Of a DNA stretch of 64,000 bases, positions 5,785 to 36,720 are shown in pieces; positions within the stretch are counted from its first letter, which is position 1; every line of letters begins with the position of its first letter. The position numbers and the translations under genes were made by a program. The stretch is from positions 93 to 64,092 of the forward strand of contig JAURXV010000008.1 of the NCBI GenBank assembly GCA_030654195.1. Direction: 5' to 3'. Under the pieces are notes generated by a model. It was not told the origin of the DNA. It made no database searches and saw nothing but the letters and a program-made list of their open reading frames with translations. Source of the DNA: Syntrophales bacterium (GTDB lineage Bacteria > Desulfobacterota > Syntrophia > Syntrophales > UBA5619).

Positions 5785-5797
5785 TTCTTCCTCTCCT

Positions 5798-6091: not shown

Positions 6092-6184
6092 GGTTGTCCA
6101 CCTCCCGATTCACGGCTGAAGAATGTGACGCATCAACAGGTAAAGGAAAAGGAGTGTTTCGCCTCACTCCTCACTCCTCACGCT

Positions 6185-13877: not shown

Positions 13878-13991
13878 ATTCAGATAATATAGGGGCTATT
13901 CATTTTATGAATGGCGGTTCACCATGCTTTCAAAAACCGATTTTGTCAAGCGGAATTTGGCAACGAAATTGAGACATAAAACCCGCACCCC

Positions 13992-14320
13992 CTATAGCCC
14001 CGACAGCGCCTCGAGCACGGTGATGATGACGCAGGAGTCCTTCTCGCCGTTTCCCCGGGAGCAGGCCGCCCGCAGCATCTCAAGCGACAGGCTGGCGGTC
14101 GGAAGAACCACGCCGCATCAGTAACCATGGCGATCACGACCTCGGAGGCCGCCGCCACTTCGACCGGAGATCCGGCCCATGCCGCACCGGCTGCGACCAC
14201 TTCAGCCGCCTTTCCCCGGGTGCGGTTCCAGACGGTCACGGGGAAACCGGCCCTCAAGAGCGCCTGGCTCATCGGACGACCCATCAAACCCATACCGATA
14301 AATCCGATCCGCTGCATCAT
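13992..14320 (-). pseudogene. internally deleted 3-hydroxyisobutyrate/6-phosphogluconate dehydrogenase-like NAD(P)-binding oxidoreductase
   Basis: The N-terminal Rossmann part is intact (MQRIGFIGMGLMGRPMSQALLRAGFPVTVWNRT...VVIAMVTD). The frame then breaks, and a +1 frame gives a typical C-terminus (LPTASLSLEMLRAACSRGNGEKDSCVIITVLEALSGL*) ending at TAG 13992-13994. About 180 central codons are missing. Confidence 0.6.
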
Positions 14321-17524: not shown

Positions 17525-17878
17525 ATGATTGAATACATCCCCATCCTCGTCTTACTCTGTTTTGCCATTCTGATTGCCGTTCTCATCGTCGGCGCTTCGC
17601 ACCTTCTGGGTCACAGAATTTCCGGAAAAGCCAAACTTTCCACCTACGAGTGCGGGATGCAGACCATCGGTCCCACCCGGATGAAGATGAATATCCGCTA
17701 TTACATCATCGCCATGCTTTTTCTGATCTTCGATATCGAAATCATGTTTCTCTACCCGTGGGCGCTGGTGACGGGGGGGCTCCAGATGTTCGGTTTCGTG
17801 GAGATGCTGATTTTCGTCGCCGTCCTGTTTGTCGGTTATCTCTATGTGTGGAAGAAAGGGGCCCTGGAATGGGAGTAG
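17525..17878 (+). CDS. nuoA: NADH-quinone oxidoreductase subunit A
   Basis: 117 aa with 3 TM segments and YECG...FDIE..FLYPWA motifs. First gene of the nuo operon. Confidence 0.9.
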
Positions 17879-18363
17879 AAGCCGCGGCAGCCGCCTCTTT
17901 GCAGGAAGTGATCAACTGGGCAAGAAAAAATTCCGTATGGCCCGTAACCTTCGGCCTTGCCTGCTGCGCCCTGGAGATGATGGTGGCCAGTTCGTCAACC
18001 TATGACATTGCCCGCTTCGGCTCGGAGGTGTTCCGGCCCTCTCCCCGCCAGACGGACCTGATGATCGTCGCCGGAACAGTGACCAAGAAAATGGCGCCCA
18101 TGCTGAAGCGCATCTACGAGCAAATGCCCGAACCGAAATGGGTCATCGCCTATGGGGCCTGCGCATGCAGCGGCGGGATTTTCCAGACCTACAATGTCGT
18201 CCAGGGCGTCGACCAGATCATCCCCGTGGATGTCTACGTGCCCGGTTGTCCTCCCCGGCCCGAAGGTCTTCTGAAAGGGATCATCACCCTTCAGGAGAAG
18301 ATCGCCGCAGAGCCGGCGGGACAAAGAAACCTTGTCAGTTTGCCGTGGGGGAACAATGGCTAA
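17869..18363 (+). CDS. nuoB: NADH-quinone oxidoreductase subunit B
   Basis: Frame of ORF 17650..18363. Start at ATG 17869, overlapping the nuoA stop. [18 protein letters not shown] and VPGCPPRPE (cluster N2 ligands). Confidence 0.9.
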
Positions 18364-18853
18364 GTGCATGGCCGGTGATCTGCTGAAGGAAACCTTCCCG
18401 GAGGCGGTGCGGGACATCGAAGAATTCCGACGGGAAACAAGCATCACCATCGATGCGGGCAAGATCAGGGAGGTCATGACTTTCCTGAAGGAAAATGAAA
18501 AGCTTTGTTACGATCTGCTCCTGGACCTTGCCGGCGTGGACTTCGATGACCGCTCTCCCCGCTTCATGATCGCTTATCTGTTGCACAGCACGAAATTCAA
18601 CAACAAACTCCGGATCAAAACGACGGTTGCGGAAGGCGCTTCTCTGGATACGGTCAGTGATATCTGGATAGCGGCGGACTGGATGGAGCGGGAAGTGTAT
18701 GACCTGTTCGGGATAATATTCAATAATCATCCGTATTTAAGACGTATTCTTCTGCCCGAGGATTTTGTCGGCCACCCCTTGAGAAAGGATTTCCCTGTCA
18801 AAGGACCGGATTTCGGTCAACCGCTTCAGGTTTGCTTAGAGGAAGAACGATAA
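18356..18853 (+). CDS. nuoC: NADH-quinone oxidoreductase subunit C
   Basis: Frame of ORF 18332..18853. ATG 18356 overlaps the nuoB stop. [20 protein letters not shown] and LRKDFP motifs. Confidence 0.9.
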
Positions 18854-18875
18854 CGTTTTTGAGGGCTTCGAATCA

Positions 18876-20051
18876 ATGGTTGAATCCCGCTACATGACGA
18901 TCAATATGGGGCCGCAGCATCCCGCAACCCACGGCGTACTGAGGCTGCTTTTGGAACTTGACGGGGAGATCATTGTCAAGGCTGAACCGCACATCGGTTA
19001 TCTGCATCGGGGTATCGAAAAATTATCCGAATCCATGACCTATCCCCAGGCCCTCACCCTGACGGACAGGCTTGACTATACCAGCGCCCTCTCCAACAAT
19101 CTTGCCTACTGCCTTGCCGTAGAGAAACTGCTGGATATAAAAATACCGAAGAGGGCCCAATATCTGCGGGTTCTGATGGCCGAGCTCCAGCGGATCGCCG
19201 CCCACCTTCTCTGGGTGGCGACGCATGCCCTCGACCTTGGGGCGATGACGCTGCTCTTCTACGCCTTCCGGGAAAGGGAAACCATTCTGGAGATCCTGGA
19301 ATTGGCGACCGGCGCAAGGCTGACGCCGAGTTTTATCCGGATCGGCGGTCTGGCGAGCGACATTCCCGCCACCTTTCTGCCCCGCGTGAAGGCGTTTGTG
19401 GAGGATTTTCCCAGGCGGGTGGATGATTACGAAACGCTGCTGACGGAAAACATCATCTGGAAGAAAAGAACAACGAACATCGCGCCGATGTCCGCGGAAG
19501 AGTGCATTCAGTACGGCGTCACGGGGCCGGTGCTGAGGGCTTCCGGCGTCTGTTATGACGTCCGAAAGGCCTATCCCTACTCGAGCTACGAAGATTTTGA
19601 TTTTGAAATCCCGCTGGGCAGCCACGGGGATGTCTATGACCGATATCTCGTGAGAATGAAAGAAATGCGGCAGTCAAACCGGATTGTGAAGCAGGCCGCG
19701 GAGAAGCTGCCCGACGGTCCGTTCGCCGCTGTGGACGCCCCGCTGGTTGTGCCGCCGGCGAAGGAAGAGGTGGGCCGGGACATTGCGGCGCTGATACGCC
19801 ATTTCAAGATCATGCAAGAGGGGTTCCGGCCGCCGTGCGGCGAGGTTTACGCCTCCATCGAATCGTCGAAAGGGGAACTCGGTTTTTATCTCATCAGCGA
19901 CGGGACCAACAAGCCCTTCCGGATGAGGATCAGACCGCCCTCCTTCATCAATCTGGCCGCGCTGCCGAAGATGATCGAGGGACAGATGGTCGCCGATGTC
20001 GTCGCCGCCATCGGCAGTATCGACATTGTGTTGGGAGAGATCGACAGATAG
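18876..20051 (+). CDS. nuoD: NADH-quinone oxidoreductase subunit D
   Basis: 391 aa. NMGPQHPATHGVLRL, GYLHRGIEKL and a C-terminal DIVLGEIDR. Confidence 0.95.
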   Translation: MVESRYMTINMGPQHPATHGVLRLLLELDGEIIVKAEPHIGYLHRGIEKLSESMTYPQALTLTDRLDYTSALSNNLAYCLAVEKLLDIKIPKRAQYLRVLMAELQRIAAHLLWVATHALDLGAMTLLFYAFRERETILEILELATGARLTPSFIRIGGLASDIPATFLPRVKAFVEDFPRRVDDYETLLTENIIWKKRTTNIAPMSAEECIQYGVTGPVLRASGVCYDVRKAYPYSSYEDFDFEIPLGSHGDVYDRYLVRMKEMRQSNRIVKQAAEKLPDGPFAAVDAPLVVPPAKEEVGRDIAALIRHFKIMQEGFRPPCGEVYASIESSKGELGFYLISDGTNKPFRMRIRPPSFINLAALPKMIEGQMVADVVAAIGSIDIVLGEIDR

Positions 20052-20058
20052 GTTAATT

Positions 20059-22014
20059 ATGACAGACATCATTTTCAGTTCCTGGCAGAACGAACGGTTT
20101 GACGGCAGGGAGGCCGCGGCGCCGGACAACAGGCCTCCCGTGAATGTGAAGCTGGCCGCCGAGTTCGGCCCCGGTGAGCCGATCAAGGCCCTCATGGGCT
20201 GGGACGGCATCGTGCTTCGCGATGACGACGTCGATATCGTTGACATGTGCGCAAAGTATGCGGAGGCGGTGCAGCAGGAGTCCTGCGGCAAGTGTTTCCC
20301 CTGCCGCGTCGGGACAAGGATCGTCGCTGATTGGCTGAAGAAGATCGCCGCCGGAGAGGGAAAGGAGGCGTACCCGGAGAAAATCAGAGATTTGTCCCTC
20401 TCCATCCGCGACGGATCCAAGTGCTCCATCGGTCAGACGGGGATGAACCCCATCCTCCACGCGCTGCAATATTTCCCGCAGGCCTTTGCCGCAGCGATCA
20501 CGGAGCAGAAAAAGGCCAAAGAGGGCCGCTACCGTTACTCCGTCACCGCCCCCTGCATCAGCGTGTGCCCCAGCAGTCTCGACATCCCCCGCTATGTGGA
20601 AGAAATCAGCGAACAGCGATTCGCCGAATCGCTGGCGACCATCCGACAGGGCGTCTGCATGGCCGGGACACTGGGAAGGGTCTGTATCCGTCCCTGTGAA
20701 TCAAACTGCCGCCGGGCGAATATCGATGAGGCCATTTCCATCAAATGGCTGAAACGGTATGTCGCCGATTATGAAATTGAAAAGAACCGACATCCGGAGA
20801 TCCGAGGCCATCAGCATAAGGATAGCAAGAAGGTGGCGGTCATCGGCGCCGGTCCGGCGGGATTGTCCTGCGCCTACTACCTAAGTCTGATGGGTTATCG
20901 GGTAACCATCTTTGAGAAACTGCCCGAGCCCGGCGGCATGGCCGCCGTGGGCATCCCCGATTACCGCCTGCCGCGGGCGATCATCCGTAGCGAAGTGGAG
21001 ATCGTCAAGAAGGCAGGTGTGGAGATCCGCTATGGCGTCGAGATCGGGAAGGAGATAAAATTCGCCGATATCCGGAAGGATCATGACGCCGTCTTCATCG
21101 GCGTGGGCGCCCAGGGCAGTTCGCCCATGGGGGTGGAGGGTGAAGAGAAGAACTACCGCGGTTTCATCTCCGGCGTCCAGTATCTTCTGGACATCAATCT
21201 GGGAAGAGATCCATACCCGGAAGGGAAAAAAGTGGTGGTCGTCGGCGGCGGCAACGTGGCGATCGACTGCGTGCGCTCCTCCTTCCGCATCGGGAAACCG
21301 GATGTGAACCTCGTCTACCGACGGTCGAAGGCGGAGATGCCCGCCGATCCGGTGGAGATCAAGGATGCCGAGGATGAAAAAGTCAACTTCCACTACCTCT
21401 GCAATCCGACGAAAATACTCGAGAAAAACGGAAAGGTCATCGGAGTGGAATGCCTCCGCATGGAGCTGGGCGAACCGGATCAAAGCGGCAGGAGAAGGCC
21501 CGTCCCCGTGCCCGGTTCGGAATTTATCATTGAAACGGATATCCTCATCCCGGCCATCGGTCAGAAGGTGGATTATTCCTTCCTGGAAGAAACAGACGGC
21601 ATCAAGCTGTCGAAATGGAAAACGGTTGATTCCGACGGAGAAACCTTTGCCACCTCGCAGGCGGGGGTGTTCGCCTCCGGTGACTGCGTTACCGGTCCCG
21701 ATGTGCTGGTCAGGGCAACGGGCAACGGCAAGAGAGCGGCGGAAAAGATCGACCTCTTCCTGACCGGCAACAAGGTGGAAGCCTCGATCGATGAAAAATT
21801 CAGAACCCTTTTTTCCACCCTCGGGGTATACGACAAAAAGGAGCAGCTCGGCGTCATCGGCGGTCTCAAGCGGGCGCACCTGCCGATGCTCGACCCGGAA
21901 GAGCGGAAGCTGACCTTCGAGGAAGTGGAAGCAGGCTTCAGTACCCCGGTGGCGCTCGGCGAGGCCGCACGATGTCTGCGCTGCTACAGGATCGGCATGA
22001 TTGCACTGGGTTGA
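20059..22014 (+). CDS. fusion flavoprotein: NuoF C-terminal 4Fe-4S domain + GltD/NfnB-like NAD(P)H-dependent FAD oxidoreductase (SfrB-like architecture)
   Basis: Frame of ORF 19996..22014, start at ATG 20059 (MTDIIF). NuoF-type ESCGKCFPCRVGT...SKCSIGQ. Then Cys clusters (CISVCPSSLDIP, CIRPCESNC). Then VAVIGAGPAGLSCAYYL...EKLPEPGGM and VVVVGGGNVAIDC dinucleotide folds. No FMN/NADH-binding NuoF N-terminal part. Confidence 0.8.
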   Translation: MTDIIFSSWQNERFDGREAAAPDNRPPVNVKLAAEFGPGEPIKALMGWDGIVLRDDDVDIVDMCAKYAEAVQQESCGKCFPCRVGTRIVADWLKKIAAGEGKEAYPEKIRDLSLSIRDGSKCSIGQTGMNPILHALQYFPQAFAAAITEQKKAKEGRYRYSVTAPCISVCPSSLDIPRYVEEISEQRFAESLATIRQGVCMAGTLGRVCIRPCESNCRRANIDEAISIKWLKRYVADYEIEKNRHPEIRGHQHKDSKKVAVIGAGPAGLSCAYYLSLMGYRVTIFEKLPEPGGMAAVGIPDYRLPRAIIRSEVEIVKKAGVEIRYGVEIGKEIKFADIRKDHDAVFIGVGAQGSSPMGVEGEEKNYRGFISGVQYLLDINLGRDPYPEGKKVVVVGGGNVAIDCVRSSFRIGKPDVNLVYRRSKAEMPADPVEIKDAEDEKVNFHYLCNPTKILEKNGKVIGVECLRMELGEPDQSGRRRPVPVPGSEFIIETDILIPAIGQKVDYSFLEETDGIKLSKWKTVDSDGETFATSQAGVFASGDCVTGPDVLVRATGNGKRAAEKIDLFLTGNKVEASIDEKFRTLFSTLGVYDKKEQLGVIGGLKRAHLPMLDPEERKLTFEEVEAGFSTPVALGEAARCLRCYRIGMIALG

Positions 22015-22024
22015 ACGGTAAGGA

Positions 22025-24571
22025 ATGGACATGATTCGGTTAACCATCGACGGAAAAGAGATCGTCACCCAGCAGGGGAAGACCATCCTCGAGGCGGCCC
22101 GGGAGGGAGGCATCGCCATCCCGACCCTCTGTTACCATGAGCGGCTCTCCCCCATCGCCTCCTGTCGCCTCTGCATCGTGGAGGTGGAAGGCTATGAGCA
22201 GCCGATGACCTCCTGCACCACACCGGCGGTGGAGGGTATTTCCGTAATCACCCGATCGGACCGGCTCTTGAAGATGAGGCGGGAATTCCTGAACCTCATC
22301 CTCACCTCGCATCCGCTGGATTGCCCCCAGTGCGACAAGGGGGGAGAATGTCGGGTCCAGGATCTCGCCTATGAACATGGCATCGAAAAGGTTGAATACG
22401 AGGCTCTTCGAAAAGACCGAAAAGAAGAGTATGCCACGCCGCTGATCCGTTACTGGGAGCTCCGATGCGTCCTCTGCGGGAGATGCGTCCAGGGCTGCCG
22501 GGAGGTGTCGGGAAGAGCGGCCATCGACATCAAGGGCAACGGCTTTGAGGCCCGGATCGCCCCGACGGAGAACGGCGACTGCATCTCCTGCGGCGAGTGT
22601 CTTTCCCTGTGCCCGGTCGGCGCCCTCACGGAAACCCTGAGCCCGGTCAAAGGGAGGGTCTGGCAGAGTGAAAGAACCGATACCACCTGCCCCCATTGCG
22701 GTTTCGGATGCCGGCTGACGCTGAACGTGATTGACGGAAAAATCATCAGCAAGGTGATTAGTGAGACGAACCTTCCGCCCAACAACACCTCCCTGTGCAT
22801 CCGCGGGCGTTTCGGCTATGATTTTACGAACCACGAAGCGAGGTTGACCGAACCCTTTCAACGAATCGATGGTGAGAAAAAGAAACTCGAACGGGAAGAG
22901 GTCCTGAAGATAACGGCGGAGAACCTTCGGCGGCTCTCCGACGAGGGGAAGGGGATCGGGTTTATCGTTTCACCGCGGGCCACCAACGAAGAGATCTTCC
23001 TGATCTCCCGGATTGCGGCGCTCTTCGAGAATGGCCGCGTCGCCTCCTCCGCCTCCTACCATACGGGAAAAGTGGCCGCCGCCTTCCGGCAGATGGGGAT
23101 AAGCCCCGGTTACCGTTACGACACGATTCGCACCTGCAAAACGATCATCGTGGCCGGCGCCGATCTGCTGATCAACAACCACCTGCTGGCCAACAAGGTC
23201 AGGGAGGCCGTCAAATGGAACGGCGCCAGGGTCATCGTCGTTGACCCCCTCCCCAGCGCGCTGGCCGGCATCGCCGACGCCCATTTGAAGATTGCACCCG
23301 GGCAGGATGCCGAGGTTTTCAACGCCCTCTCCCGAAGGTTGCTCTTGGACGACAAGTACGACAAAGAGGCCGAAACCTTTGAGGGTTTTGTTGAATTGAG
23401 GAAGGCCCTTACGGCAGAATACGGGGACAGATTTCAAATCTGTCCCCTGTCCCCCCTGATGTCGACCGGCGTGGAAGCGGAGATGCTGGATAAGGCCTAT
23501 TGTCTGATCCGCGATGAAGGGAATACGGGGGTTATTTTTGCCTCCGGCATCACGAATAGTGGGGAGAGCCTCGCGGCGCTTCTGAATTTCTGCCTGCTGA
23601 AAGGTCTGCACAAACGGGGGCTGATCATGCCGGCCGCCCTCCAGGCCAATGCCTTGGGTGCGGTTTCCATCGTGAAGGATATGGCCCTGCCCGATGAACT
23701 TCTCTGCGATTCCCGCATCTCCGGACTTTTCATCTACGAGGAGGACCCGTTCCATTACCTGAACGGAGAGATGGTCAAAAACGCGCTCGGTCAAAAGGAG
23801 TTCATCGCGGTATGCGATCTGCTGCCGACGGCCGTCATGGATTATGCCCGTCTGGTCTTACCCTCCGCCGGTTTTGCCGAGAAGGAAGGCACCTTCATCT
23901 CCGGCGACGGCCGCGTGAGGGCCGTCAGGAAGGCCTGCCGGGGAACGGCGGCGGGATATGAATTCCTGAATGAACTTTCCGGCCGTCTGGGAGGGAAACG
24001 ATACAACAACCCGGCGGAGATCAAAAGTGAACTCCAACGGCTGGGCATCCTCCAGGAAGAGGGCGACACGGTAGAGGCGCCGGGGATCGGCAAGGCAAGG
24101 TTTGCGGCATTTGGGGACATCTTGCCGCAAGGTGTCCCCCCTAACATCATGATGCCTCATCGTGTCCCCTCCCATGATGCGGCATCGTGTCCCCCAAAGG
24201 ATGCGCATGGAGAGACCGGAAAATACCGGCTGATCCTCCGCGACCTCTTCATGAACCACCACCTCTGCGGGGGACATGATGCCGCATCGTGTCCCCCCGG
24301 GAAAGGTATCGCCCGGGTGCAGAAGGATCTGCTGTTCATGTCACCTGAAGATGCCGCGCTCCTCCATATCGCCACCGGAGAGAGTGTCTGCATCGAAAGC
24401 GCCGACGGCGCCGTGACCAGACCGGTTACGATCAAGGCGGGAATGAAAACGGGCGTTCTGGAGTGCGTTCTCGGGGACACCTTGGGGCAAGGTGTCCCCA
24501 TACGCAGCGAGATGCTTGCGCTTTCGTTGCGGCCGTCCAAGGTGATTGCGGTATCCGTGCGGAAGGTTTAA
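22025..24571 (+). CDS. nuoG: NuoG-like 75-kDa Fe-S subunit (molybdopterin-oxidoreductase fold)
   Basis: 848 aa. 2Fe-2S motif (CYHERLSPIASCRLCIVEV...C), HPLDCPQCDKGGEC, CVLCGRCVQGC, CISCGECLSLCPVGA, then the CPHCGFGC cluster and a MopB-like domain. The C-terminal part contains in-frame palindromic inserts. Confidence 0.85.
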   Translation: MDMIRLTIDGKEIVTQQGKTILEAAREGGIAIPTLCYHERLSPIASCRLCIVEVEGYEQPMTSCTTPAVEGISVITRSDRLLKMRREFLNLILTSHPLDCPQCDKGGECRVQDLAYEHGIEKVEYEALRKDRKEEYATPLIRYWELRCVLCGRCVQGCREVSGRAAIDIKGNGFEARIAPTENGDCISCGECLSLCPVGALTETLSPVKGRVWQSERTDTTCPHCGFGCRLTLNVIDGKIISKVISETNLPPNNTSLCIRGRFGYDFTNHEARLTEPFQRIDGEKKKLEREEVLKITAENLRRLSDEGKGIGFIVSPRATNEEIFLISRIAALFENGRVASSASYHTGKVAAAFRQMGISPGYRYDTIRTCKTIIVAGADLLINNHLLANKVREAVKWNGARVIVVDPLPSALAGIADAHLKIAPGQDAEVFNALSRRLLLDDKYDKEAETFEGFVELRKALTAEYGDRFQICPLSPLMSTGVEAEMLDKAYCLIRDEGNTGVIFASGITNSGESLAALLNFCLLKGLHKRGLIMPAALQANALGAVSIVKDMALPDELLCDSRISGLFIYEEDPFHYLNGEMVKNALGQKEFIAVCDLLPTAVMDYARLVLPSAGFAEKEGTFISGDGRVRAVRKACRGTAAGYEFLNELSGRLGGKRYNNPAEIKSELQRLGILQEEGDTVEAPGIGKARFAAFGDILPQGVPPNIMMPHRVPSHDAASCPPKDAHGETGKYRLILRDLFMNHHLCGGHDAASCPPGKGIARVQKDLLFMSPEDAALLHIATGESVCIESADGAVTRPVTIKAGMKTGVLECVLGDTLGQGVPIRSEMLALSLRPSKVIAVSVRKV
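24113..24139. repeat. 27-nt palindrome GGGGACA-N13-TGTCCCC (type I) inside nuoG
   Basis: GGGGACATCTTGCCGCAAGGTGTCCCC, translated in frame as GDILPQGVP. Confidence 0.8.
24148..24194. repeat. two tandem half-units CATGATGCNNCATCGTGTCCCC (type II halves) inside nuoG
   Basis: 24148-24169 CATGATGCCTCATCGTGTCCCC and 24173-24194 CATGATGCGGCATCGTGTCCCC. Confidence 0.7.
24270..24296. repeat. 27-nt palindrome GGGGACA-N13-TGTCCCC (type II) inside nuoG
   Basis: GGGGACATGATGCCGCATCGTGTCCCC, translated as GHDAASCPP. Confidence 0.8.
24473..24499. repeat. 27-nt palindrome GGGGACA-N13-TGTCCCC (type I) inside nuoG
   Basis: GGGGACACCTTGGGGCAAGGTGTCCCC, translated as GDTLGQGVP. Confidence 0.8.
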
Positions 24572-24598
24572 CTTTAACGGATCGTTTAAGGTTTTGAT

Positions 24599-25585
24599 AT
24601 GGAACTGTACTATTATATCCTGGAAGTGGTCATAAAAAATCTGGTCGTCATTTCGATTCTAATGCTCTTTGTGGCCTATCTCACCCTCGCGGAAAGGAAA
24701 TTCCTGGGCTACCTCCAGGTCCGGCTGGGACCCAACCGGGTGGGGACCTGGGGATTGCTCCAACCCATTGCGGACGGGATAAAATCCTTCGTCAAAGAAG
24801 ACATCATTCCGATCAACGCCGACAAGCCCGTTTATGTGATCGCCCCGATGATCTCCTTTGTCGCCGCCCTTTCCATGTTTGCCGTCATTCCCTTTGGAGA
24901 CAGCGTTACCCTCTTCGGGCGGGAGATCAAACTGGTCATCGCGGATGTGGATATCGGGATCCTCTATATCTTCGCCATGGGAACCTTGGGGGAATACGGC
25001 ATCGTCCTGGGAGGCTGGTCATCGGGCAACAAATACGCCATCCTGGGGGCGCTCCGGGCGGCGGCGCAGATGATAAGTTACGAAGTCGCGCTGGGGCTCA
25101 TCGTGATCGGAACGATTATTCTTTCCGGTTCCCTGCGCCTGACCGAAATCGTGGAAGCCCAGAGAGATGTCTGGTTTATCGTCTATCAACCCTTTGCCTT
25201 TCTTTTGTACATTGTGGCGGCGCTGGCCGAGATCAACCGAACGCCCTTCGACATGCCGGAATCGGAAAGCGAGTTAGCCTGCGGATTCAACATCGAGTAC
25301 AGCAGCATGAAGTTCGCCCTTTTCATGATTGCCGAGTATGCCCATCTGGTCACGGTGGCCGCCCTGACCACGACGTTGTTCCTGGGCGGCTGGCTGGGGC
25401 CGGTTTTACCCGGACCGGTGTGGTTTATCTTGAAAACGTTATTGATCATTTTCATCTTCATCTGGATCAGGGGCACCTACCCGCGGATGCGTTACGACCA
25501 CATCATGAAATTCGGATGGAAGTTCCTCTTTCCGGCGGCGTTAGCCAACGTGGTGATCACCGCCTTTATTGTGGCGCTGAGATAG
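24599..25585 (+). CDS. nuoH: NADH-quinone oxidoreductase subunit H
   Basis: 328 aa polytopic membrane protein. LTLAERKFLGYLQVRLGPNRVG and ALAEINRTPFDMPESESEL motifs. Confidence 0.95.
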   Translation: MELYYYILEVVIKNLVVISILMLFVAYLTLAERKFLGYLQVRLGPNRVGTWGLLQPIADGIKSFVKEDIIPINADKPVYVIAPMISFVAALSMFAVIPFGDSVTLFGREIKLVIADVDIGILYIFAMGTLGEYGIVLGGWSSGNKYAILGALRAAAQMISYEVALGLIVIGTIILSGSLRLTEIVEAQRDVWFIVYQPFAFLLYIVAALAEINRTPFDMPESESELACGFNIEYSSMKFALFMIAEYAHLVTVAALTTTLFLGGWLGPVLPGPVWFILKTLLIIFIFIWIRGTYPRMRYDHIMKFGWKFLFPAALANVVITAFIVALR

Positions 25586-25592
25586 TGAGGCA

Positions 25593-26000
25593 ATGATGAT
25601 ACTCCCTCTGCTGAAAGGGCTTCGACTGACCTTAAAGATGTTTTTTTCCAAACCGGTCACCATACGGTATCCGGAGGAAAAAAGGGCGCTATCGCCCCGC
25701 TGGCGGGGAATGCATTACTTTGAAAAAAATGAGACGGGCGAGACCGCCTGTGTGGCCTGCGGGTTATGCGTTGCCGTGTGTCCTTCGCACTGCATCACGC
25801 TGGAAATCCGGGAGCGTGAAGACGGTTCCCGTTATCCCGGAAGATACGAAATCGAAGCCCTGAGATGCATATTCTGCGGCTTCTGCCAGGAGGCCTGTCC
25901 GGTCAATGCGATCAAATTGGGGCAGAACTACGAGTATGTTCATTACGCAAGGAAAGAGTTCCTGCTGACGAAGGAAAGCCTGCTTTCCGCCAAAGGATGA
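25593..26000 (+). CDS. nuoI: NADH-quinone oxidoreductase subunit I
   Basis: 135 aa with two 4Fe-4S motifs, CVACGLCVAVCP and CIFCGFCQEACP. Confidence 0.95.
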   Translation: MMILPLLKGLRLTLKMFFSKPVTIRYPEEKRALSPRWRGMHYFEKNETGETACVACGLCVAVCPSHCITLEIREREDGSRYPGRYEIEALRCIFCGFCQEACPVNAIKLGQNYEYVHYARKEFLLTKESLLSAKG

Positions 26001-26004
26001 AAAG

Positions 26005-26541
26005 ATGGATGCCATAGGATTCAAGTTCATACTGTTCATGATTACGGCGCTCGTGGTCATCGTCTCTTCCGTACTGATGGCAACCCGGAAAAATCCCATT
26101 CACAGCGCGCTGTGGATGATCGTCACCTTCTTTGCGATGGCCGTTATTTATCTGCTGCTCAATGCCCAGTTCATCGCGGTGGCCCAGGTCATGGTCTATG
26201 CCGGCGCGATCATGATGCTGATCCTCTTTGTCATCATGATGGTCAACATGGACAAGGGGGATGAGAAGAAAACAACCAAAGCACCCTGGTCATTCGGAAA
26301 AAAGATGGCCGCGGCGCTGCTCATGGTCATCCTGCTCGTCGAGTTGCTCTTCGGCGCGCTGTTTTACCGGATGACGGCCAGGGTCGGCGATTATCCGGCC
26401 GATGCGGTCGCCGCCGTGGGGAATGCAAAAACGGTGGGGGCCCTGCTGTACGGCCAGTATCTCTTTCCGTTCGAGGTTGCGTCGATCCTGCTTTTGATCG
26501 GTATTGTGGGGGCCGTCGTCATTGCCAAAAGGAACAAATGA
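26005..26541 (+). CDS. nuoJ: NADH-quinone oxidoreductase subunit J
   Basis: 178 aa hydrophobic protein in the operon position between nuoI and nuoK. AQVMVYAGAIMMLILFVIMM. Confidence 0.85.
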   Translation: MDAIGFKFILFMITALVVIVSSVLMATRKNPIHSALWMIVTFFAMAVIYLLLNAQFIAVAQVMVYAGAIMMLILFVIMMVNMDKGDEKKTTKAPWSFGKKMAAALLMVILLVELLFGALFYRMTARVGDYPADAVAAVGNAKTVGALLYGQYLFPFEVASILLLIGIVGAVVIAKRNK

Positions 26542-26571
26542 CGGCGTGGTCATCATCAACAGGAGAAAGAA

Positions 26572-26883
26572 ATGTTTCAGGAAATCCCTTCCGGTTTGTG
26601 TTTGGTTTTGAGCGGCATCATTTTTTCGATCGGGGCGATCGGTGCGATCACCCGAAGAAATGTGATCGTCATCTTCATGTGCATCGAACTCATGTTAAAC
26701 GCGGTTAATCTGGCATTTATCGCCTCCGGCAACGCATTTTCCTCCATGGACGGAGCGGTGTTCGTTTTTTTCATCATGACCGTCGCCGCCGTGGAGGCCG
26801 CCGTGGGTCTGGCCATCTTTGTGATGGTCTTCCGTCTTCAGGGAACGGTCAACGCCGATGAAGTCAACCTGTTGAAAGGCTGA
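26572..26883 (+). CDS. nuoK: NADH-quinone oxidoreductase subunit K
   Basis: 103 aa with 3 TM segments. CIELMLNAVNLAF...AAVEAAVGLAI. Confidence 0.9.
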   Translation: MFQEIPSGLCLVLSGIIFSIGAIGAITRRNVIVIFMCIELMLNAVNLAFIASGNAFSSMDGAVFVFFIMTVAAVEAAVGLAIFVMVFRLQGTVNADEVNLLKG

Positions 26884-26938
26884 AAAAACAGAATCCAATA
26901 TTCATCGCTTTGTAACGCTTTTTTAAGGAAGTACATTT

Positions 26939-28927
26939 ATGGCTGATTATATCTGGCTGATACCCTGTTTCCCGGCATTGGGATTCATCATCAACGCTTT
27001 CCTCGGAAGTCGAATCTCCCGGACCTCTGTTTCCTGGGTCGCCTGCCTTGCGATCTTTTTCTCCTTTCTGGCATCCCTCGCCGTTTTTTTCCAGTTTCTG
27101 GAGATGCCGGCGGCGGCCAGGGTCTTCGAGTCGGACCTCTACAACTGGATCGCCTCGGGCGAATTTCGTGTGCCGATCGGTTTCAGAATCGACGCCCTTT
27201 CGGTGATCATGTGCCTTGTGGTCACGGGGGTGGGGTTTCTGATTCACGTCTATTCCATCGGGTATATGCACGATGATCCCGGATTCAAGCGATTTTTCAT
27301 TTACCTGAACCTCTTCGTCTTCATGATGCTTCTTCTGGTGACGGGGAACAACCTGCTGCTGATGTTCGTGGGTTGGGAAGGCGTCGGGCTCTGTTCCTAT
27401 CTGTTGATCGGTTTCTGGTATGAAAAAGATTCAGCGGTAACCGCCGGCAAAAAAGCATTTATTGTCAATCGGATCGGTGACTTCGGTTTTCTGTTGGGCA
27501 TCTTTCTTTTATTTGTCAGTCTGGGGGAGCAGGGGGTATGGACGCTGAATTTCGGGGAGATACAGAAGAGCGCCCATCTGCTGAACGGCGACGTCGTTAC
27601 GCTGATCACCCTGCTGTTTTTTGTGGGGGCCATCGGAAAATCGGCACAGATCCCCCTTTACGTCTGGCTGCCCGACGCGATGGAAGGGCCGACGCCGGTG
27701 AGTTCGCTTATCCATGCGGCGACGATGGTCACGGCAGGCGTCTACATGATCGCCCGTCTTAATTTCCTCTACAGCATGGCGCCCGAGACCATGATCATTG
27801 TCGCGCTGATCGGCGTATTGACGGCGTTTTTCGCCGCCTCCATCGGTTTCGCCCAGTATGACATCAAGAAGATCCTCGCCTATTCCACCATCAGCCAGTT
27901 GGGCTTCATGTTCGTGGCCATGGGTGTGGGCGCCTATGCGGCGGGCATTTTCCATCTGATGACCCACGCCTTTTTCAAGGGACTCCTCTTCCTGGCGGCG
28001 GGAAGCGTGATGCACGCGATGAGCGGTGAGTTGGACCTGAGGAACATGGGGGGATTGAGAAAGAAAATCCCGGTCACCTACTGGACCTTTTTTATCGCCT
28101 GCCTGGCCATTTCCGGGATACCCGGATTTTCAGGATACTTCAGCAAGGACGAGATCCTCTGGAAGGCCTTCAGCTCTTCTCAAGGCCATACGCTGATCTG
28201 GCTGCTGGCCGCCGTGACGGCCGGGATGACCGCCTTCTACATGTTTCGGCTTTTCTTCACCGTCTTTCACGGGGAAAGTCGCGCCTCCGCGGAGACCAAA
28301 CATCATATCCACGAATCCCCCAAGGTGATGACCATCCCGTTGTCGATCCTGGCCTTTTTATCCCTTGTCGGCGGTTACGCGGGCATTCCTTCCCTGCTGG
28401 GAGGGAATAACGCGATCGAACACTTTCTGGCGCCGATTTTCGGTTCGGCAACGCCTGCGCCATCCACAGCGGGCGGTTTTGATCTGATCGGTGCGGCCTG
28501 GGCGTCCACGACGGCAACGGCGGGGCACGACGGCTCACTGGAAATGACCCTGATGGTTGCCTCCGTGATGATCGCCCTTTTCGGAATAACCCTGGCCTAC
28601 ATCCTCTACGTCAAGAGGCCTGAGCTGCCGGGACGGTTTACGGCAACCTTCTCTCGACTCTATCGCGCCGTCAATAATAAGTATTTCGTAGATGAGTTTT
28701 ATGAGCTGCTCTTTGTCCGAGGCACCCTGAAGGCGGGCGCCCTGCTCCTCAAGGTGGTGGACAACGGCATGATCGAAGGCGCCGTCAACGGTATGGCCGT
28801 TGTCGTGGAACGGGCGGGCGGACGATTAAGACGGCTTGAGACCGGTTACGTTCAGGAATATGCGCTCGCCATCATCCTCGGCGCCGTGATCGTGATCGGT
28901 TATCTCGTTGTAATACCGATGTTTTAG
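26939..28927 (+). CDS. nuoL: NADH-quinone oxidoreductase subunit L
   Basis: 662 aa antiporter-like subunit. WEGVGLCSYLLIGFW, GKSAQIPLYVWLPDAMEGPTPVSSLIHAATMVTAGVY. Confidence 0.95.
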   Translation: MADYIWLIPCFPALGFIINAFLGSRISRTSVSWVACLAIFFSFLASLAVFFQFLEMPAAARVFESDLYNWIASGEFRVPIGFRIDALSVIMCLVVTGVGFLIHVYSIGYMHDDPGFKRFFIYLNLFVFMMLLLVTGNNLLLMFVGWEGVGLCSYLLIGFWYEKDSAVTAGKKAFIVNRIGDFGFLLGIFLLFVSLGEQGVWTLNFGEIQKSAHLLNGDVVTLITLLFFVGAIGKSAQIPLYVWLPDAMEGPTPVSSLIHAATMVTAGVYMIARLNFLYSMAPETMIIVALIGVLTAFFAASIGFAQYDIKKILAYSTISQLGFMFVAMGVGAYAAGIFHLMTHAFFKGLLFLAAGSVMHAMSGELDLRNMGGLRKKIPVTYWTFFIACLAISGIPGFSGYFSKDEILWKAFSSSQGHTLIWLLAAVTAGMTAFYMFRLFFTVFHGESRASAETKHHIHESPKVMTIPLSILAFLSLVGGYAGIPSLLGGNNAIEHFLAPIFGSATPAPSTAGGFDLIGAAWASTTATAGHDGSLEMTLMVASVMIALFGITLAYILYVKRPELPGRFTATFSRLYRAVNNKYFVDEFYELLFVRGTLKAGALLLKVVDNGMIEGAVNGMAVVVERAGGRLRRLETGYVQEYALAIILGAVIVIGYLVVIPMF

Positions 28928-28953
28928 ATAAAGTAATGGATCGGTGAATAGAC

Positions 28954-30477
28954 ATGGTATTCCCTCTGTTGAGCACAATTATTTTTTTACCCCTGGGCGT
29001 TGCGCTTGTTTTGATACTGCTGCCGCGGAAAAACCCCCTTCTGATAAAGGTTTTTACCCTCATCTGGACGATTCTGGAATTTGGTCTCTCCCTCCCGCTG
29101 TTCTTCAATTTTAATGAAAAAACGGCGGGGATGCAGTTCATGGAAAACCTGGATTGGTTTCCCGAATTCGGCATCGGCTACATCCTCGGCGTGGACGGCA
29201 TCAGCATGCTCCTGGTGCTTTTGACAACCTTCCTCACCGTGCTGTGCGTGCTCTGTTCCTGGAACTCGATCACGGATAAAGTGAAGGAATACTATGCGTC
29301 GTTCCTGCTGTTGGAAACGGCCATGTTAGGCGCCCTCTGCGCACTGGATCTCGTCCTCTTTTACATCTTCTGGGAGCTGATGCTGGTGCCCATGTACCTC
29401 CTCATCGGGGTCTGGGGCGGCCCGCGCCGGATCTATGCGGCCATCAAGTTTTTTCTCTTTACCATGGTGGGCAGCGTGCTGATGCTCCTGGCGATCATGG
29501 CCCTCTATTTCCACTACGGCCGCGATACGGGGCTCTATACCTTCAACCTCCTGGATCTCTACAAGGCAAACATCCCGGTCATGAAGCAATACTGGCTCTT
29601 TGCCGCCTTTGCGCTCTCCTTCGCCATCAAGGTGCCGATGTTCCCCTTTCATACGTGGTTGCCCGACGCCCACACAGAGGCGCCCACGGCAGGCAGCGTC
29701 ATTCTGGCCGGCGTCCTGCTGAAAATGGGGACTTATGGATTCCTGAGGTTTGCCATTCCCCTCTTCCCGCAGGCCGCCTTCGCCGCGGCGCCGATCATCT
29801 CCATTCTCGCGCTGATCGGGATCATCTACGGCGCCATCATGTGCATCATGCAGACCGACCTGAAAAGGCTGATCGCCTACTCATCGGTCAGCCACCTGGG
29901 GTATGTGATGCTCGGCATCTTTGCCTTCAACATGCAGGGGCTGGAAGGGGGCATCTACCAGATGCTCAATCACGGCGTCAGCACCGGGGGGCTCTTCCTC
30001 ATCGTCGGCATGATCTATGAGAGACGGCATACGCGGATGATCGCCGACTTCGGCGGGCTTTCCAAAGTCATGCCGAGGCTGGCCGTTTTTTTCATGATCA
30101 TCACGCTCTCCTCGATCGCGCTGCCCGGCACGAACGGCTTCGTGGGCGAATTTCTGATCCTGCTTGGCGTTTTCAGAAGCAATATAAGCTATGGGGTGCT
30201 GGCCGCCTCCGGCGTCATTTTAGGCGCCGTGTACATGCTGTGGATGTTCCAGCGCGTCATGTTCGGACAGATTACGAAGGAGGAGAATAGAGGTTTAAAA
30301 GACATTTCGAAAAGGGAAACGGTCATCCTTTGCGCGATTGTCTTTTTCATATTTTTCATGGGACTCTATTCCCAGGCTTTCTTCAGGAAGATGGACGCAA
30401 CGGCCGCAGGCTATCTCCAGAACATGCAGACGAAAATTGCGAGTTACAATCCGGCGGGCCCGGTTCCATGGAGATGA
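28954..30477 (+). CDS. nuoM: NADH-quinone oxidoreductase subunit M
   Basis: 507 aa. FAIKVPMFPFHTWLPDAHTEAPTAGSVILAGVLLKMGTYG. Confidence 0.95.
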   Translation: MVFPLLSTIIFLPLGVALVLILLPRKNPLLIKVFTLIWTILEFGLSLPLFFNFNEKTAGMQFMENLDWFPEFGIGYILGVDGISMLLVLLTTFLTVLCVLCSWNSITDKVKEYYASFLLLETAMLGALCALDLVLFYIFWELMLVPMYLLIGVWGGPRRIYAAIKFFLFTMVGSVLMLLAIMALYFHYGRDTGLYTFNLLDLYKANIPVMKQYWLFAAFALSFAIKVPMFPFHTWLPDAHTEAPTAGSVILAGVLLKMGTYGFLRFAIPLFPQAAFAAAPIISILALIGIIYGAIMCIMQTDLKRLIAYSSVSHLGYVMLGIFAFNMQGLEGGIYQMLNHGVSTGGLFLIVGMIYERRHTRMIADFGGLSKVMPRLAVFFMIITLSSIALPGTNGFVGEFLILLGVFRSNISYGVLAASGVILGAVYMLWMFQRVMFGQITKEENRGLKDISKRETVILCAIVFFIFFMGLYSQAFFRKMDATAAGYLQNMQTKIASYNPAGPVPWR

Positions 30478-30490
30478 AAGGTAGGAAAAT

Positions 30491-31948
30491 ATGGTTGTCA
30501 TGAAACCGGAACTTGCCTTCGGTTGGATCATGCCGGAGATTGTGATTACGCTCTCCGCTGTTTTCATTTTACTGTTGTCCGCCTTTCGCCGGAAGAGCGA
30601 TATCGGGCGCCTTGCGGGCGGCGTATCGCTGATCGGCGCAGGTCTCGCGTTTTTCCTGACCTGCCGGTTATGGAACAGCGACGTCGACATCTATAACGGA
30701 CTTTACACGATCGACAACTTCGGCCTTTTTTTCAAGGCGCTGGTGCTGGTGATTTCGCTTCTCGTGACGCTGTTGTCGCTCCGGTACGTTGAACGGGAAG
30801 AGATGATCAAAGGTGAATATTACGCGCTGCTGCTGTTCGGCATCCTGGGCATGATGATCATGGTTTCCTCCAACCATTTCGTCACCATCTTCATCGGCCT
30901 GGAGGTCATGTCCATCGCAATCTATGTCCTTTGCGGCCTCCTGATCGGCAATCCCCGATCGGCGGAGGCCTCTCTCAAGTACTTTTTACTGGGGGCCTTT
31001 GCCACCGCCTTTCTGCTGTACGGCATCGCGCTGATCTACGGCACGACCGGCATACTGGATGTCCGCGAAATTGCGCGTTATGTGACCTCAGGAAACTTCC
31101 TGATTACACCCGCCTTCATGGCGGGGATGGCCCTGCTCATCGTGGGGTTCGGTTTCAAGACGGCCTCCGTCCCCTTTCATATGTGGACGCCCGATGTCTA
31201 TGAGGGCGCCCCGACCTCCATCACCGCGTATATGGCGACAGGCGTGAAGGCCGCGGCCTTCGGCGCATTTCTCCGGGTCTTCTACACGGCCCTCTACCCC
31301 TTTCTTACGGAATGGTCCGGCATGTTATGGATCATCGCCGTCCTGACGATGACCCTGGGAAACATCACCGCCCTGATGCAGAACGATATCAAAAGGATGC
31401 TCGCCTATTCCAGCATCGCCCATGCCGGATACATTCTGATCGCCTTCGCCGTCGGCGACCGGATTTTTTCCGCGAGTATTCTCTTTTATCTGCTGGTTTA
31501 CACTTTCATGAATATCGGGGCCTTTGCGGTCGTCATCCTTCTGGGTCGGAAAGAGGCGCCCAATACCGGCATCGAATCCTATGCGGGCCTCGCGACAAGG
31601 CACCCGATGATCGCGTTGGCGATGAGCGTTTTTCTGCTCTCGCTGGCGGGCGTCCCGCCCCTTGCCGGCTTTATGGGCAAGTTTTATGTCCTCAGCGACG
31701 CCATCAAAGCCGGATATTACTGGCTGGCGATCATCGGCGTACTCAACAGCGTGGTGGCCGTTTACTATTACCTCCGGGTCATCATGTACATGTATTTCAA
31801 GGAACCGGAAGGCGAGATCGGCAGAATGGATCTCTCTCCGGCCTACGCGGTCGTGATTGTAGTCAGCATCTGGGCGTTGATCCACATGGGCGTCTTCCCG
31901 CGCTCTTTCCTGCTGATCGCGAGGGAATCGGTCAACATTTTCATGTAG
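30491..31948 (+). CDS. nuoN: NADH-quinone oxidoreductase subunit N
   Basis: 485 aa (an alternative start at 30500 is possible). FKTASVPFHMWTPDVYEGAPTSITAYMATG. Confidence 0.95.
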   Translation: MVVMKPELAFGWIMPEIVITLSAVFILLLSAFRRKSDIGRLAGGVSLIGAGLAFFLTCRLWNSDVDIYNGLYTIDNFGLFFKALVLVISLLVTLLSLRYVEREEMIKGEYYALLLFGILGMMIMVSSNHFVTIFIGLEVMSIAIYVLCGLLIGNPRSAEASLKYFLLGAFATAFLLYGIALIYGTTGILDVREIARYVTSGNFLITPAFMAGMALLIVGFGFKTASVPFHMWTPDVYEGAPTSITAYMATGVKAAAFGAFLRVFYTALYPFLTEWSGMLWIIAVLTMTLGNITALMQNDIKRMLAYSSIAHAGYILIAFAVGDRIFSASILFYLLVYTFMNIGAFAVVILLGRKEAPNTGIESYAGLATRHPMIALAMSVFLLSLAGVPPLAGFMGKFYVLSDAIKAGYYWLAIIGVLNSVVAVYYYLRVIMYMYFKEPEGEIGRMDLSPAYAVVIVVSIWALIHMGVFPRSFLLIARESVNIFM

Positions 31949-33088: not shown

Positions 33089-33383
33089 CGAGATCCTCCG
33101 TTTATGAGATGAAACAATAGATACCCCTCTCGGGGGGCAGTGAAAGTACCGGAGTCCGGAAAGAGGCTATCCCCTTTTTCTTTGTGAAGTCAATACCTTT
33201 TTTGTCCAATTTCCCGCTGATGGCCCATTTCTCCGGAACAACGAGGGGGCCTGCGCCTGTTCCAGCCGGAAGCTTCTTTTGAGACACGGAATCCGGAATG
33301 CCGGTGATTAAAGGTTGAAAATCCGACCGTATCGAAGTATGTTCACTAAAAAAAAGGTATCTACGGTATCTATGGAGGAGAGC

Positions 33384-34250: not shown

Positions 34251-34262
34251 TGAAAATGGGAC

Positions 34263-34442
34263 GGCTTCGTAAAAAGGTAGCAGGCAAGGCGTGCGAATCC
34301 TGAGGAATGAGGCGTCGGGGACATGTGGGGACACCTTGCCGCAAGGTGTCCCCAAGCCCAAAGGGATCGGAACGTGTCCCCGGAACACGCCGCAATGACG
34401 AAGGATGAAGCGCAACGCAACATCCGGACTTTTTACGAAGCC
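34263..34442. repeat. IR-flanked ~180-bp intergenic element (copy 2), carrying a nested GGGGACA palindrome
   Basis: Perfect 14-nt inverted repeat GGCTTCGTAAAAAG (34263-34276) / CTTTTTACGAAGCC (34429-34442). The right end CATCCGGACTTTTT matches copy 1. The internal 27-nt palindrome is at 34327-34353. Confidence 0.55.
34327..34353. repeat. 27-nt palindrome GGGGACA-N13-TGTCCCC (type I), intergenic copy
   Basis: GGGGACACCTTGCCGCAAGGTGTCCCC. Extra half-sites GGGGACA at 34317-34323 and TGTCCCC at 34375-34381. Confidence 0.8.
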
Positions 34443-34471
34443 GTTATAATGAATCGGAATCGGGCGCAAAC

Positions 34472-36554: not shown

Positions 36555-36720
36555 GGACGATGTCATTGGACAGATAATGTGTTACCCCAAAACTGAAATA
36601 TTTTTCGGATTTTGCTTGCACAAAGACAAGGATGATGATAGCGAGGAACCACGACTCCGAGAGTTTAAATTTGTTTGAGTAATTCAACTTAACTTGGGTA
36701 GCGAAAAGGAGGAAGTGTCT

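Follow-up and report, generated by a model that had tools for sequence, protein, structure and literature searches.

We describe an operon in a 64,000-nucleotide (nt) stretch of contig JAURXV010000008.1 from a Syntrophales bacterium (assembly GCA_030654195.1); this whole stretch is referred to below as the window. The operon probably encodes a 13-subunit, proton-translocating quinone oxidoreductase of the complex I type in which the NuoEFG head has been replaced by a two-subunit module derived from FdhAB or SfrAB. The genes nuoA-B-C-D-X-G-H-I-J-K-L-M-N are contiguous at 17525–31948 on the + strand, where X is a flavo-iron-sulfur protein of 651 amino acids (aa) and G is a NuoG-like protein of 848 aa. 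X and G occupy exactly the slot of nuoE-F-G, which supports the idea that they form the electron input module. From the motifs in X, the complex probably oxidises NADPH, and it may run in reverse. The genes of the operon are as follows.

17525–17878, + strand: nuoA (Pfam Oxidored_q4, E 8e-37)
17869–18363, + strand: nuoB (Pfam Oxidored_q6; NCBIfam NuoB 244 bits, cut-off 116)
18332–18853, + strand: nuoC (Complex1_30kDa, E 3e-42; TIGR01961 139 bits, cut-off 122)
18876–20051, + strand: nuoD (Complex1_49kDa, E 2e-117; TIGR01962 576 bits, cut-off 459)
20059–22014, + strand: X, SfrB/FdhB-type flavo-iron-sulfur protein in the nuoE/F slot, 651 aa
22025–24571, + strand: G, NuoG-like, degenerate FdhA/SfrA-type alpha subunit, 848 aa
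24599–25585, + strand: nuoH (NADHdh, E 8e-124)
25593–26000, + strand: nuoI, two [4Fe-4S] clusters (Fer4 dicluster matches; position and orthology)
26005–26541, + strand: nuoJ (Oxidored_q3)
26572–26883, + strand: nuoK (Oxidored_q2)
26939–28927, + strand: nuoL (Proton_antipo_N and Proton_antipo_M)
28954–30477, + strand: nuoM (Proton_antipo_M)
30491–31948, + strand: nuoN (Proton_antipo_M)

All eleven subunits of the Q and P modules (NuoA, B, C, D and H–N) were matched by Pfam or NCBIfam models, and both modules look canonical. A preliminary description made from the sequence had given this gene order together with the junctions on either side of X (20051/20059 and 22014/22025), and the open reading frame (ORF) coordinates match it; the gaps are 7 nt between nuoD and X and 10 nt between X and G. 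The mechanically called ORF of X also offers an in-frame ATG at 19996, and the Met at 20059 is the start in all 20 of the aligned homologues. For nuoB, the mechanical ORF runs from 17650; we placed the start at the ATG overlapping the end of nuoA by analogy with orthologous loci. Promoter-like sites in the operon occurred at chance level, and no convincing internal terminator was found on the + strand around X and G.

To place this arrangement among relatives, we conducted the synteny survey of nuoD-X-nuoG operons that the preliminary description had proposed, using one genome per species. From 587 relatives returned, the best 80 loci were kept, and the 13 window proteins were run against these by tblastn. 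X lies within a nuo operon in 28 of these best 80 loci, and a truncated nuoD-X-G contig (L015) brings the count to at least 29. Because of this recurrence the arrangement is not a matter of chance. The nuo-embedded X proteins of the relatives are 47–76% identical to that of the window. The gene order is (A)BCD-X-G-H.. in 23 loci, G-ABCD-X-H.. in L012 and L054 (L009 shows X-H with the upstream part cut off) and X-G-ABCD-H.. in L037, where the stop of G overlaps the start of nuoA. Thus, X and G stay with the nuo genes through three gene orders. Most of the carriers belong to Syntrophales, Syntrophorhabdales and other Thermodesulfobacteriota. Their labels include Syntrophaceae, Syntrophus, Syntrophobacterales, Syntrophorhabdus, Deferrisomatales and Thermodesulfobacteriota, among them the complete genome of ORM2a; one carrier is labelled 'Bacteroidales' and is possibly mis-binned.

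X consists of three recognisable domains and a short C-terminal motif.

20242–20493, + strand: X aa 62–145, NuoF C-terminal (N3-type) [4Fe-4S] domain with ligands Cys76/79/82/122 (Pfam NADH_4Fe-4S, E 6e-23)
20524–20787, + strand: X aa 156–243, Fer4_20 two-cluster domain with Cys166/170/209/213/217 and Lys232 (Pfam Fer4_20, E 2e-20)
20827–21729, + strand: X aa 257–557, Rossmann module for flavin adenine dinucleotide (FAD) and NAD(P)H (Pfam Pyr_redox_2, E 2e-28)
21970–21984, + strand: X aa 638–642, C-terminal RCLRC motif, invariant in 77 X proteins

The motifs that the preliminary description quoted for X are all present, and we located ESCGKCFPC at aa 74–82, SKCSIGQ at aa 120–126, GAGPAG at aa 263–268, GGGNVA at aa 396–401 and VYRR at aa 419–422. 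It had also described X as keeping just the C-terminal 4Fe-4S part of NuoF, without the part that binds flavin mononucleotide (FMN) and NADH, and as fusing this remnant to extra Cys clusters and a GltD-type FAD/NAD(P)H module. The profile scan that it proposed turned up no intact FMN-binding NuoF domain: the Pfam scan found neither Complex1_51K nor SLBB in X, and the NCBIfam NuoF model aligns to X only over positions 305–410 of its 410, scoring 58 bits (cut-off 559). The first part of that description is therefore borne out by both scans, and the second by the Fer4_20 and Pyr_redox_2 matches and by the conservation of the ligands. In solved structures, X residues 43–153 match the C-termini of NuoF, HoxF and HydB. 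X thus retains the four-helix, N3-cluster part of NuoF without the FMN/NADH site, and by our reading of the alignment it also appears to keep the last strands of the domain that precedes this part.

No other protein of the window seems to supply what X lacks. No NuoE- or NuoF-type domain was found by Pfam among the 56 predicted proteins of the 64-kb window, which include every selected ORF of at least 100 aa, and a six-frame motif scan of the window found no FMN or NADH motif of NuoF. These two scans agree with the earlier claim that the window has no NuoE-like gene. Within the window, then, two hallmarks of canonical complex I are absent, namely NuoE and the FMN/NADH domain of NuoF (Complex1_51K). 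In principle, canonical NuoE and NuoF from another part of the genome could supply the NADH site and bind G, leaving X as an accessory NADPH entry or a regulatory subunit. This would fit with our view of the genome being limited to 64 kb, and syntrophs usually encode NuoEF-like subunits within hydrogenases and formate dehydrogenases. Split nuo clusters with a separate nuoEFG are also found in other bacteria (PMC5736913, PMC4453560). We nonetheless regard a hidden nuoEF as improbable. The FMN motif of NuoF was not found in the 80 relative loci within their fetched flanks of about 10 kb, which include 524 kb of nuo-context DNA; none lies within 10 kb of any related operon. The N3-type domain of X is itself the NuoG-contacting part of NuoF, and a second NuoF would presumably compete with it. 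In characterised relatives, moreover, an alpha subunit and an SfrB-type beta subunit are by themselves an active NADPH-dependent enzyme (PMC13040438, PMC7483475).

To examine the cofactor sites of X, we aligned 77 X proteins, 28 of which are from a nuo context (the window and 27 loci). Without exception, the 77 proteins share three Cys of the N3 site (76, 79 and 122), Cys166, 170, 209, 213, 217, 639 and 642, Lys232, and the GxGxxA and YRR residues. Cys82 is a Cys in 63 of the 77 X proteins and in all 28 from a nuo context. Each glycine of GxGxxG is kept in 76 of 77, and all three are kept in 27 of the 28 nuo-context proteins. In these 28 the cluster ligands and NADPH-site residues are unchanged, and the ligand sets in X are complete. 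X carries the features of a GltD/NfnL-type NADPH flavin module: the FAD-binding GxGxxG, the NADPH-type GxGxxA with Arg-Arg, and two [4Fe-4S] clusters. GxGxxA has been proposed as a mark of NADP(H) binding in the SfrB family (PMC7483475). The NAD(P)H site of X thus has an NADPH-type signature, which points to NADPH over NADH as the substrate. The Arg-Arg pair after the second strand (YRR in X) is the usual binding site for the 2'-phosphate.

Among solved structures, X aa 158–643 is matched best by the NfnL-like modules of Stn/NfnABC (9bov_A, E 8e-112; 9n5u_A, 2e-109; 8oh5_C, 9e-97). Weaker matches to the flavin module are NfnL, GltD and DPD, with alignments that include 4ylf_B, 5jca_L and 6s6s_G. 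RCLRC of X aligns with the RCLEC that ends the NfnL-like module of 9bov_A and 8oh5_C and probably provides two further ligands that complete the distal GltD-type cluster. In NfnABC, the flavin-proximal cluster (A7 in NfnA) is held by three Cys and one Lys (PMC12018979), and in our alignment the invariant Lys232 of X appears to correspond to this Lys. These comparisons bear on whether the FAD of X could be an NfnL-type bifurcating flavin that passes electrons from NADPH both to menaquinone (via G and NuoI) and to ferredoxin, or that confurcates in reverse. GltD/NfnL-type flavins do bifurcate in NfnSL (PMC12018979), the extra N3-type cluster of X could form a second electron branch, and the complete dicluster and N7-type cluster of G could lead to another exit. 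However, X is nearer to the NfnA module of Stn/NfnABC (about E 1e-112 to 1e-109) than to NfnL (1e-92 to 1e-89), its cluster ligand is Lys rather than Glu, and the NfnA FAD has a single exit path and is non-bifurcating (PMC12018979). We identified no ferredoxin-binding element. Bifurcation at X therefore seems very improbable, and a simple NADPH entry remains our preferred reading.

The family relationships of X are consistent with this. Its closest homologues (64–98% identity) are in metagenome-assembled genomes of Syntrophaceae, Syntrophales and Syntrophorhabdales, and where the source gives a name they are called 'formate dehydrogenase (NADP+) beta subunit' (Joint Genome Institute) or 'FAD-dependent oxidoreductase'. 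The best whole-protein NCBIfam models are of the 'putative NADPH-dependent glutamate synthase small subunit' type, with scores below their cut-offs. X has the architecture of the SfrB family (NADH_4Fe-4S, then Fer4_20, then a GltD-type module, in about 650–675 aa). An adjoining gene for a NuoG/FdhA-like alpha subunit, also characteristic of this family, is present as G 10 nt downstream, and X and G are adjacent in most loci. The resemblance to SfrB that was pointed out in the preliminary description extends over the full length, with 41–48% identity to the beta genes of X-G pairs in Geobacteraceae and Desulfuromonadales. Together, these data assign X to the SfrB/NADP-formate dehydrogenase beta family.

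G shows a similar mixture of NuoG and formate dehydrogenase features.

22130–22807, + strand: Fe-S motif region of G
23048–23071, + strand: G aa 342–349, SASYHTGK, counterpart of the FdhA CARxUH active-site motif (alignment to FdsA and orthologues)
23630–23662, + strand: G aa 536–546, PAALQANALGA, counterpart of NPLRGQNNVQGACD, with Arg replaced by Ala (alignment)

The N-terminal part of G carries a [2Fe-2S] motif (C36/47/50/64), a His-ligated [4Fe-4S] motif (H96/C100/103/109) and a complete dicluster (C148/151/154/158 and C186/189/192/196), followed by an N7/FdhA-type cluster (C222/225/229/258) and the molybdopterin-oxidoreductase fold. The motifs for the N1b, N5 (His-ligated) and N4 clusters of NuoG are thus all present, and they are conserved. 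G scores best with the NuoG model TIGR01973, at 341 bits (cut-off 470), and reaches 203 bits with the Fdh-alpha model (cut-off 666). Because the first score is below its cut-off, we call G NuoG-like and not a NuoG equivalog. The closest solved relative is FdsA (6tg9_A) of the NAD-dependent formate dehydrogenase of Rhodobacter. At the formate dehydrogenase active site FdsA reads CARVCH, and G reads SASY-HTGK without selenocysteine (Sec) or Cys. Opposite NPLRGQNNVQGACD, which we take to be the Arg333 motif of FdhH, G reads IMPAALQANALGA, with deletions adjoining. Since both Sec/Cys and the catalytic Arg are gone, G is a catalytically dead FdhA. NuoG and SfrA are themselves thought to be catalytically dead FdhA proteins.

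The 3' part of the nuoG-like gene also contains three to five in-frame insertions of a palindrome of 27–29 nt (GGGGACAnnnTGnnGCAnnGTGTCCCC). Copies are found at 24113–24141, 24148–24195, 24270–24298 and 24473–24501, and a perfect copy lies at 34327–34353 inside an unannotated 485-aa ORF (33102–34559, – strand). The insertions in G encode GDILPQGVPP, HDAASCPP (twice) and GDTLGQGVP, and the orthologues in L001 and L002 lack them. On both strands together we counted 8 matches, with 0 expected by chance. The palindrome looks like a small element of the repetitive extragenic palindrome or miniature inverted-repeat transposable element (REP/MITE) type that is tolerated in coding sequence.

The G proteins of the related operons show where this subunit may have come from. 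In nine nuo-embedded loci, the reading frame of G contains a TGA precisely where FdhA has its Sec (NVDHCARL-U-HSSTVAGL), and G keeps RGQNNVQGACD. The TGA positions within these loci are L012 5473, L018 6671, L019 13068, L021 13182, L025 6472, L028 7066, L041 13098, L047 13115 and L054 5471. In L031, G has a Cys at this position. With U written as C, the Sec-type G proteins of L018 and L041 score 873 and 848 bits with the Fdh-alpha model, above its cut-off of 666 bits. The non-Sec G of L005 scores 660.5 bits, the SfrA-like G of L067 (Trichlorobacter) 260 bits and the window G 203 bits. The features of an active FdhA, namely Sec or Cys followed by His in CARxU/CH and the Arg in RGQNNVQG, were found in L018 and L041 and are lacking in the window G. 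Within one operon family, the protein in the NuoG slot thus ranges from true Sec formate dehydrogenases to NuoG-like remnants, and the Sec-type members put an enzyme of the former kind into a complex I operon. Because the G slot holds a degenerate FdhA in the window and still a Sec FdhA in nine related operons, the input module is best regarded as a descendant of a pair of the FdhAB (NADP-formate dehydrogenase) or SfrAB type.

This range raises the question of whether the window G could itself still be an active formate dehydrogenase, with the complex formate-linked here too. The nine Sec-type orthologues favour this, as does the evidence that the window organism uses selenocysteine (fdhA at 36694–39804, described below). 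By contrast, the lack of Sec or Cys in SASY-HTGK, the Arg to Ala change with its adjoining deletions, the palindromic insertions that interrupt the C-terminal domain and the low Fdh-alpha score all argue against activity. We rejected this explanation, which is scarcely credible, on account of the missing catalytic residues.

Two other formate dehydrogenases were seen near nuo operons. In L006, a second Sec FdhA without the NuoG-type N-terminus lies just upstream of nuoA (4333–7218), after a Cys-rich Fe-S ORF, and is additional to the degenerate G within the operon. In the window, about 5 kb past the nuo operon, an fdhA gene (36694–39804, + strand) was split by the ORF finder into pieces of 199 and 820 aa in the same frame; the intervening TGA (37291–37293, in ARV-U-HSATV) probably encodes selenocysteine. 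Downstream of it are a Fer4_11 beta subunit (39810–40529) and an FdhE-like gene (40600–41484). This enzyme is a formate dehydrogenase of the periplasmic type.

The chief alternative to an X-G head on complex I is that X-G is a soluble, SfrAB-like NADPH oxidoreductase acting on ferredoxin or another acceptor and merely co-transcribed with the nuo genes. The remaining 'headless' 11-subunit complex would then take electrons from ferredoxin at NuoI, as in cyanobacterial NDH-1. We consider this unlikely, and the hidden nuoEF, bifurcating flavin and active formate dehydrogenase less likely still. Several observations weigh against an X-G head and most of them favour the soluble enzyme. The characterised relatives, SfrAB (PMC7483475) and the FdhAB of Moorella (PMC13040438), are soluble, and 11-subunit complexes whose donors are not known are common in anaerobes (PMC11238625, PMC3144371). 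More distant X proteins (41–48% identity), from Geobacteraceae, Desulfuromonadales, Desulfobacteraceae and some Bacillota, occur in nuo-free X-G pairs or alone. In L016 (10001–11953), an X homologue of 53% identity lies alone among purH, hisD, mraW and mraZ with neither G nor nuo neighbours, and orphan X genes of this kind were also seen in L017, L022, L024 and L030. A comparison of the nuo-operon X proteins with those of stand-alone X-G pairs found no nuo-specific signature in the N-terminus or the ligands. Other points bear on parts of the proposal: the binding of X-G to the membrane complex is deduced from gene context, the preference for NADPH is read from motifs, and a 64-kb view of the genome leaves room for canonical nuoEF elsewhere. 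The GltD module of Stn/NfnABC feeds a NuoG-like chain directly (PMC12018979), and what the N3-type cluster does in X is therefore uncertain. An AlphaFold2 model of X from a 20-sequence alignment was poor (mean predicted local distance difference test score 64.8, with the Fe-S domain and C-terminus below 50), too poor for measuring the distances between its clusters.

Against a soluble enzyme, X and G take up precisely the position of nuoEFG, their junctions are tight or overlap, and they remain inside or abutting the operon through three gene orders and several bacterial orders. In addition, G keeps the complete NuoG-type cluster chain, through which N3 is connected to NuoI in canonical complex I, and the operon showed no ferredoxin gene. 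Neighbour-joining trees add little to this comparison: the nuo-operon X proteins fall mostly, though not only, in one clade, and the degenerate G proteins group together, possibly through long-branch attraction. These trees are too crude for counting losses or origins of the association. On balance, these data support the idea that X and G are the electron input module of the complex.

In our model, NADPH would pass a hydride to the FAD of X in the GltD/NfnL-type module, and the FAD would release single electrons through the two [4Fe-4S] clusters of this module. From there, electrons would reach the cluster chain of G ([2Fe-2S], His-ligated cluster and dicluster) either by way of the N3 cluster of X or directly, and would go on to NuoI and NuoB and finally to menaquinone as the likely acceptor, with X-G docked on the Q module. 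Proton translocation would be coupled through NuoH and NuoJ–N. The molybdopterin domain of G would be a catalytically dead scaffold, as in NuoG. If the complex runs backward, menaquinol and the proton-motive force would drive the formation of NADPH in a syntrophic degrader of fatty acids or aromatic compounds. Given the beta-oxidation genes in the window, reverse operation is plausible, although this is speculation.

A broader possibility, which we hold only tentatively, is that the operon family as a whole connects the menaquinone pool, reversibly and with proton coupling, to the low-potential NADP(H) and formate pools of syntrophic Thermodesulfobacteriota. The relatives with a Sec FdhA would then be complex-I-type formate (and NADPH):menaquinone oxidoreductases, and the window enzyme would be an NADPH-only derivative. 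Running backward, such an enzyme would be a menaquinol:CO2/NADP+ reductase driven by the proton-motive force, providing the reverse electron transport of syntrophic acyl-CoA oxidation. The series from Sec-FdhA through a freshly inactivated form to a NuoG-like protein, every stage of it within nuo operons, would replay the origin of NuoG from formate dehydrogenase.

The surroundings of the operon in the window include an RND efflux system, a TetR regulator, beta-oxidation-type enzymes, CoA ligases, a branched-chain amino-acid ABC transporter and the formate dehydrogenase described above. Acyl-CoA dehydrogenase, enoyl-CoA hydratase, several short-chain dehydrogenases, two AMP-forming CoA ligases and KAS-III-like genes lie at 143–1333, 44477–49845 and 54641–59109. 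These acyl-CoA and CoA-ligase genes fit a syntroph that degrades fatty acids or aromatic acids. The G+C content falls to 0.41–0.44 around 40–42 kb and 50–54 kb. A 124-aa ORF at 13946–14320 (– strand) matches just the first 66 of the 161 positions of NAD_binding_2 (6-phosphogluconate-dehydrogenase type) and may be a truncated gene. Four ORFs of 190–485 aa, all on the – strand (33102–34559, 42104–42676, 59115–60077 and 60346–61209), had no Pfam match at E ≤ 1e-6.

A full-text literature search, which may miss existing accounts, turned up no paper on an operon of the type nuoABCD-sfrB/fdhB-like-G-nuoH..N. Three reviews that treat the diversity of complex I cover 12-subunit forms that have a NuoG-like subunit but lack NuoE/F, as well as Mbx-like operons with GltD-like subunits; an SfrB/FdhB protein within a nuo operon goes unmentioned there (PMC3144371, PMC4758237, PMC4453560). 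Which donor feeds the 'headless' 11-subunit complex I of anaerobes is recognised as an open question (PMC11238625, PMC3144371). An input module that is written into the operon and conserved in many uncultured syntroph-type lineages offers a concrete hypothesis for how such complexes are fed. If this is correct, an FdhAB/SfrAB-derived head for NADPH, and for formate in some relatives, would join the NADH, F420H2, ferredoxin and flavodoxin inputs of complex I. It would also matter for the way in which syntrophs keep menaquinone, NADPH and formate in balance close to the thermodynamic limit. The descent of NuoG from formate dehydrogenase, long assumed, would gain intermediates that occur in nature.

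As a comparison, canonical complex I (NuoA–N) has the eleven Q- and P-module subunits of the window operon, with their genes in the same order. The two also share a NuoG-like subunit that carries the [2Fe-2S], His-ligated and [4Fe-4S] motifs, and a domain of NuoF (residues ~305–410) is homologous to the N3-type [4Fe-4S] domain of X. Canonical complex I differs in having NuoE and Complex1_51K; in the window both are absent, and the hydride would enter through a GltD-type module with two extra [4Fe-4S] clusters. Canonical NuoG is known to keep just one of the two dicluster clusters, whereas G has both, like FdsA or proteins of the HoxU type.

The NADPH-dependent formate dehydrogenase of Moorella thermoacetica likewise pairs an alpha subunit with a beta subunit of the SfrB type, which is encoded by sfrB2 (PMC13040438), and the related nuo-operon G proteins with a Sec active site (848–873 bits with the Fdh-alpha model) resemble its alpha subunit. 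By contrast, the window G lacks Sec/Cys and the Arg, and the pair is in a complex I operon rather than being a stand-alone soluble enzyme. SfrAB of Geobacter sulfurreducens, an NADPH:Fe(III) oxidoreductase, has an NADPH-binding, GltD-like beta subunit and a NuoG/FdhA-like alpha subunit without a formate dehydrogenase active site (PMC7483475). The X-G pairs from Geobacteraceae and Desulfuromonadales compared with it are 41–46% identical to X over its full length. Their G proteins also lack the active-site Cys and His, and from taxonomy and protein size we infer that the fetched Geobacteraceae loci are SfrAB orthologues. Unlike the window pair, SfrAB is soluble and unlinked to nuo genes.

In the Bfu-type Stn/NfnABC enzymes (8oh5, 9bov, 9n5u), an NADPH/FAD module with a Lys ligand is wired to a NuoG-like chain much as proposed here, and the NfnL-like FAD of NfnABC is a non-bifurcating NADPH entry that feeds this chain (PMC12018979). 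The GltD module is inserted in the NuoG-like polypeptide in those enzymes, and NuoF-like (FMN) and NuoE-like subunits carry out the bifurcation. In the window, the module is fused to the C-terminal remnant of NuoF, and NuoF- and NuoE-like flavobicluster subunits are absent from the operon and the window. Finally, Fpo (FpoF, F420H2), the Nuo complexes of Campylobacter and Helicobacter (where two unrelated genes replace nuoE/F and flavodoxin is the donor) and cyanobacterial NDH-1 (ferredoxin) have the same 11-subunit core with a swapped electron input (PMC3144371, PMC4453560, PMC11238625). The operon described here differs from all of these in that its input would be an FdhB/SfrB-type flavoprotein together with an FdhA-derived, NuoG-like subunit.

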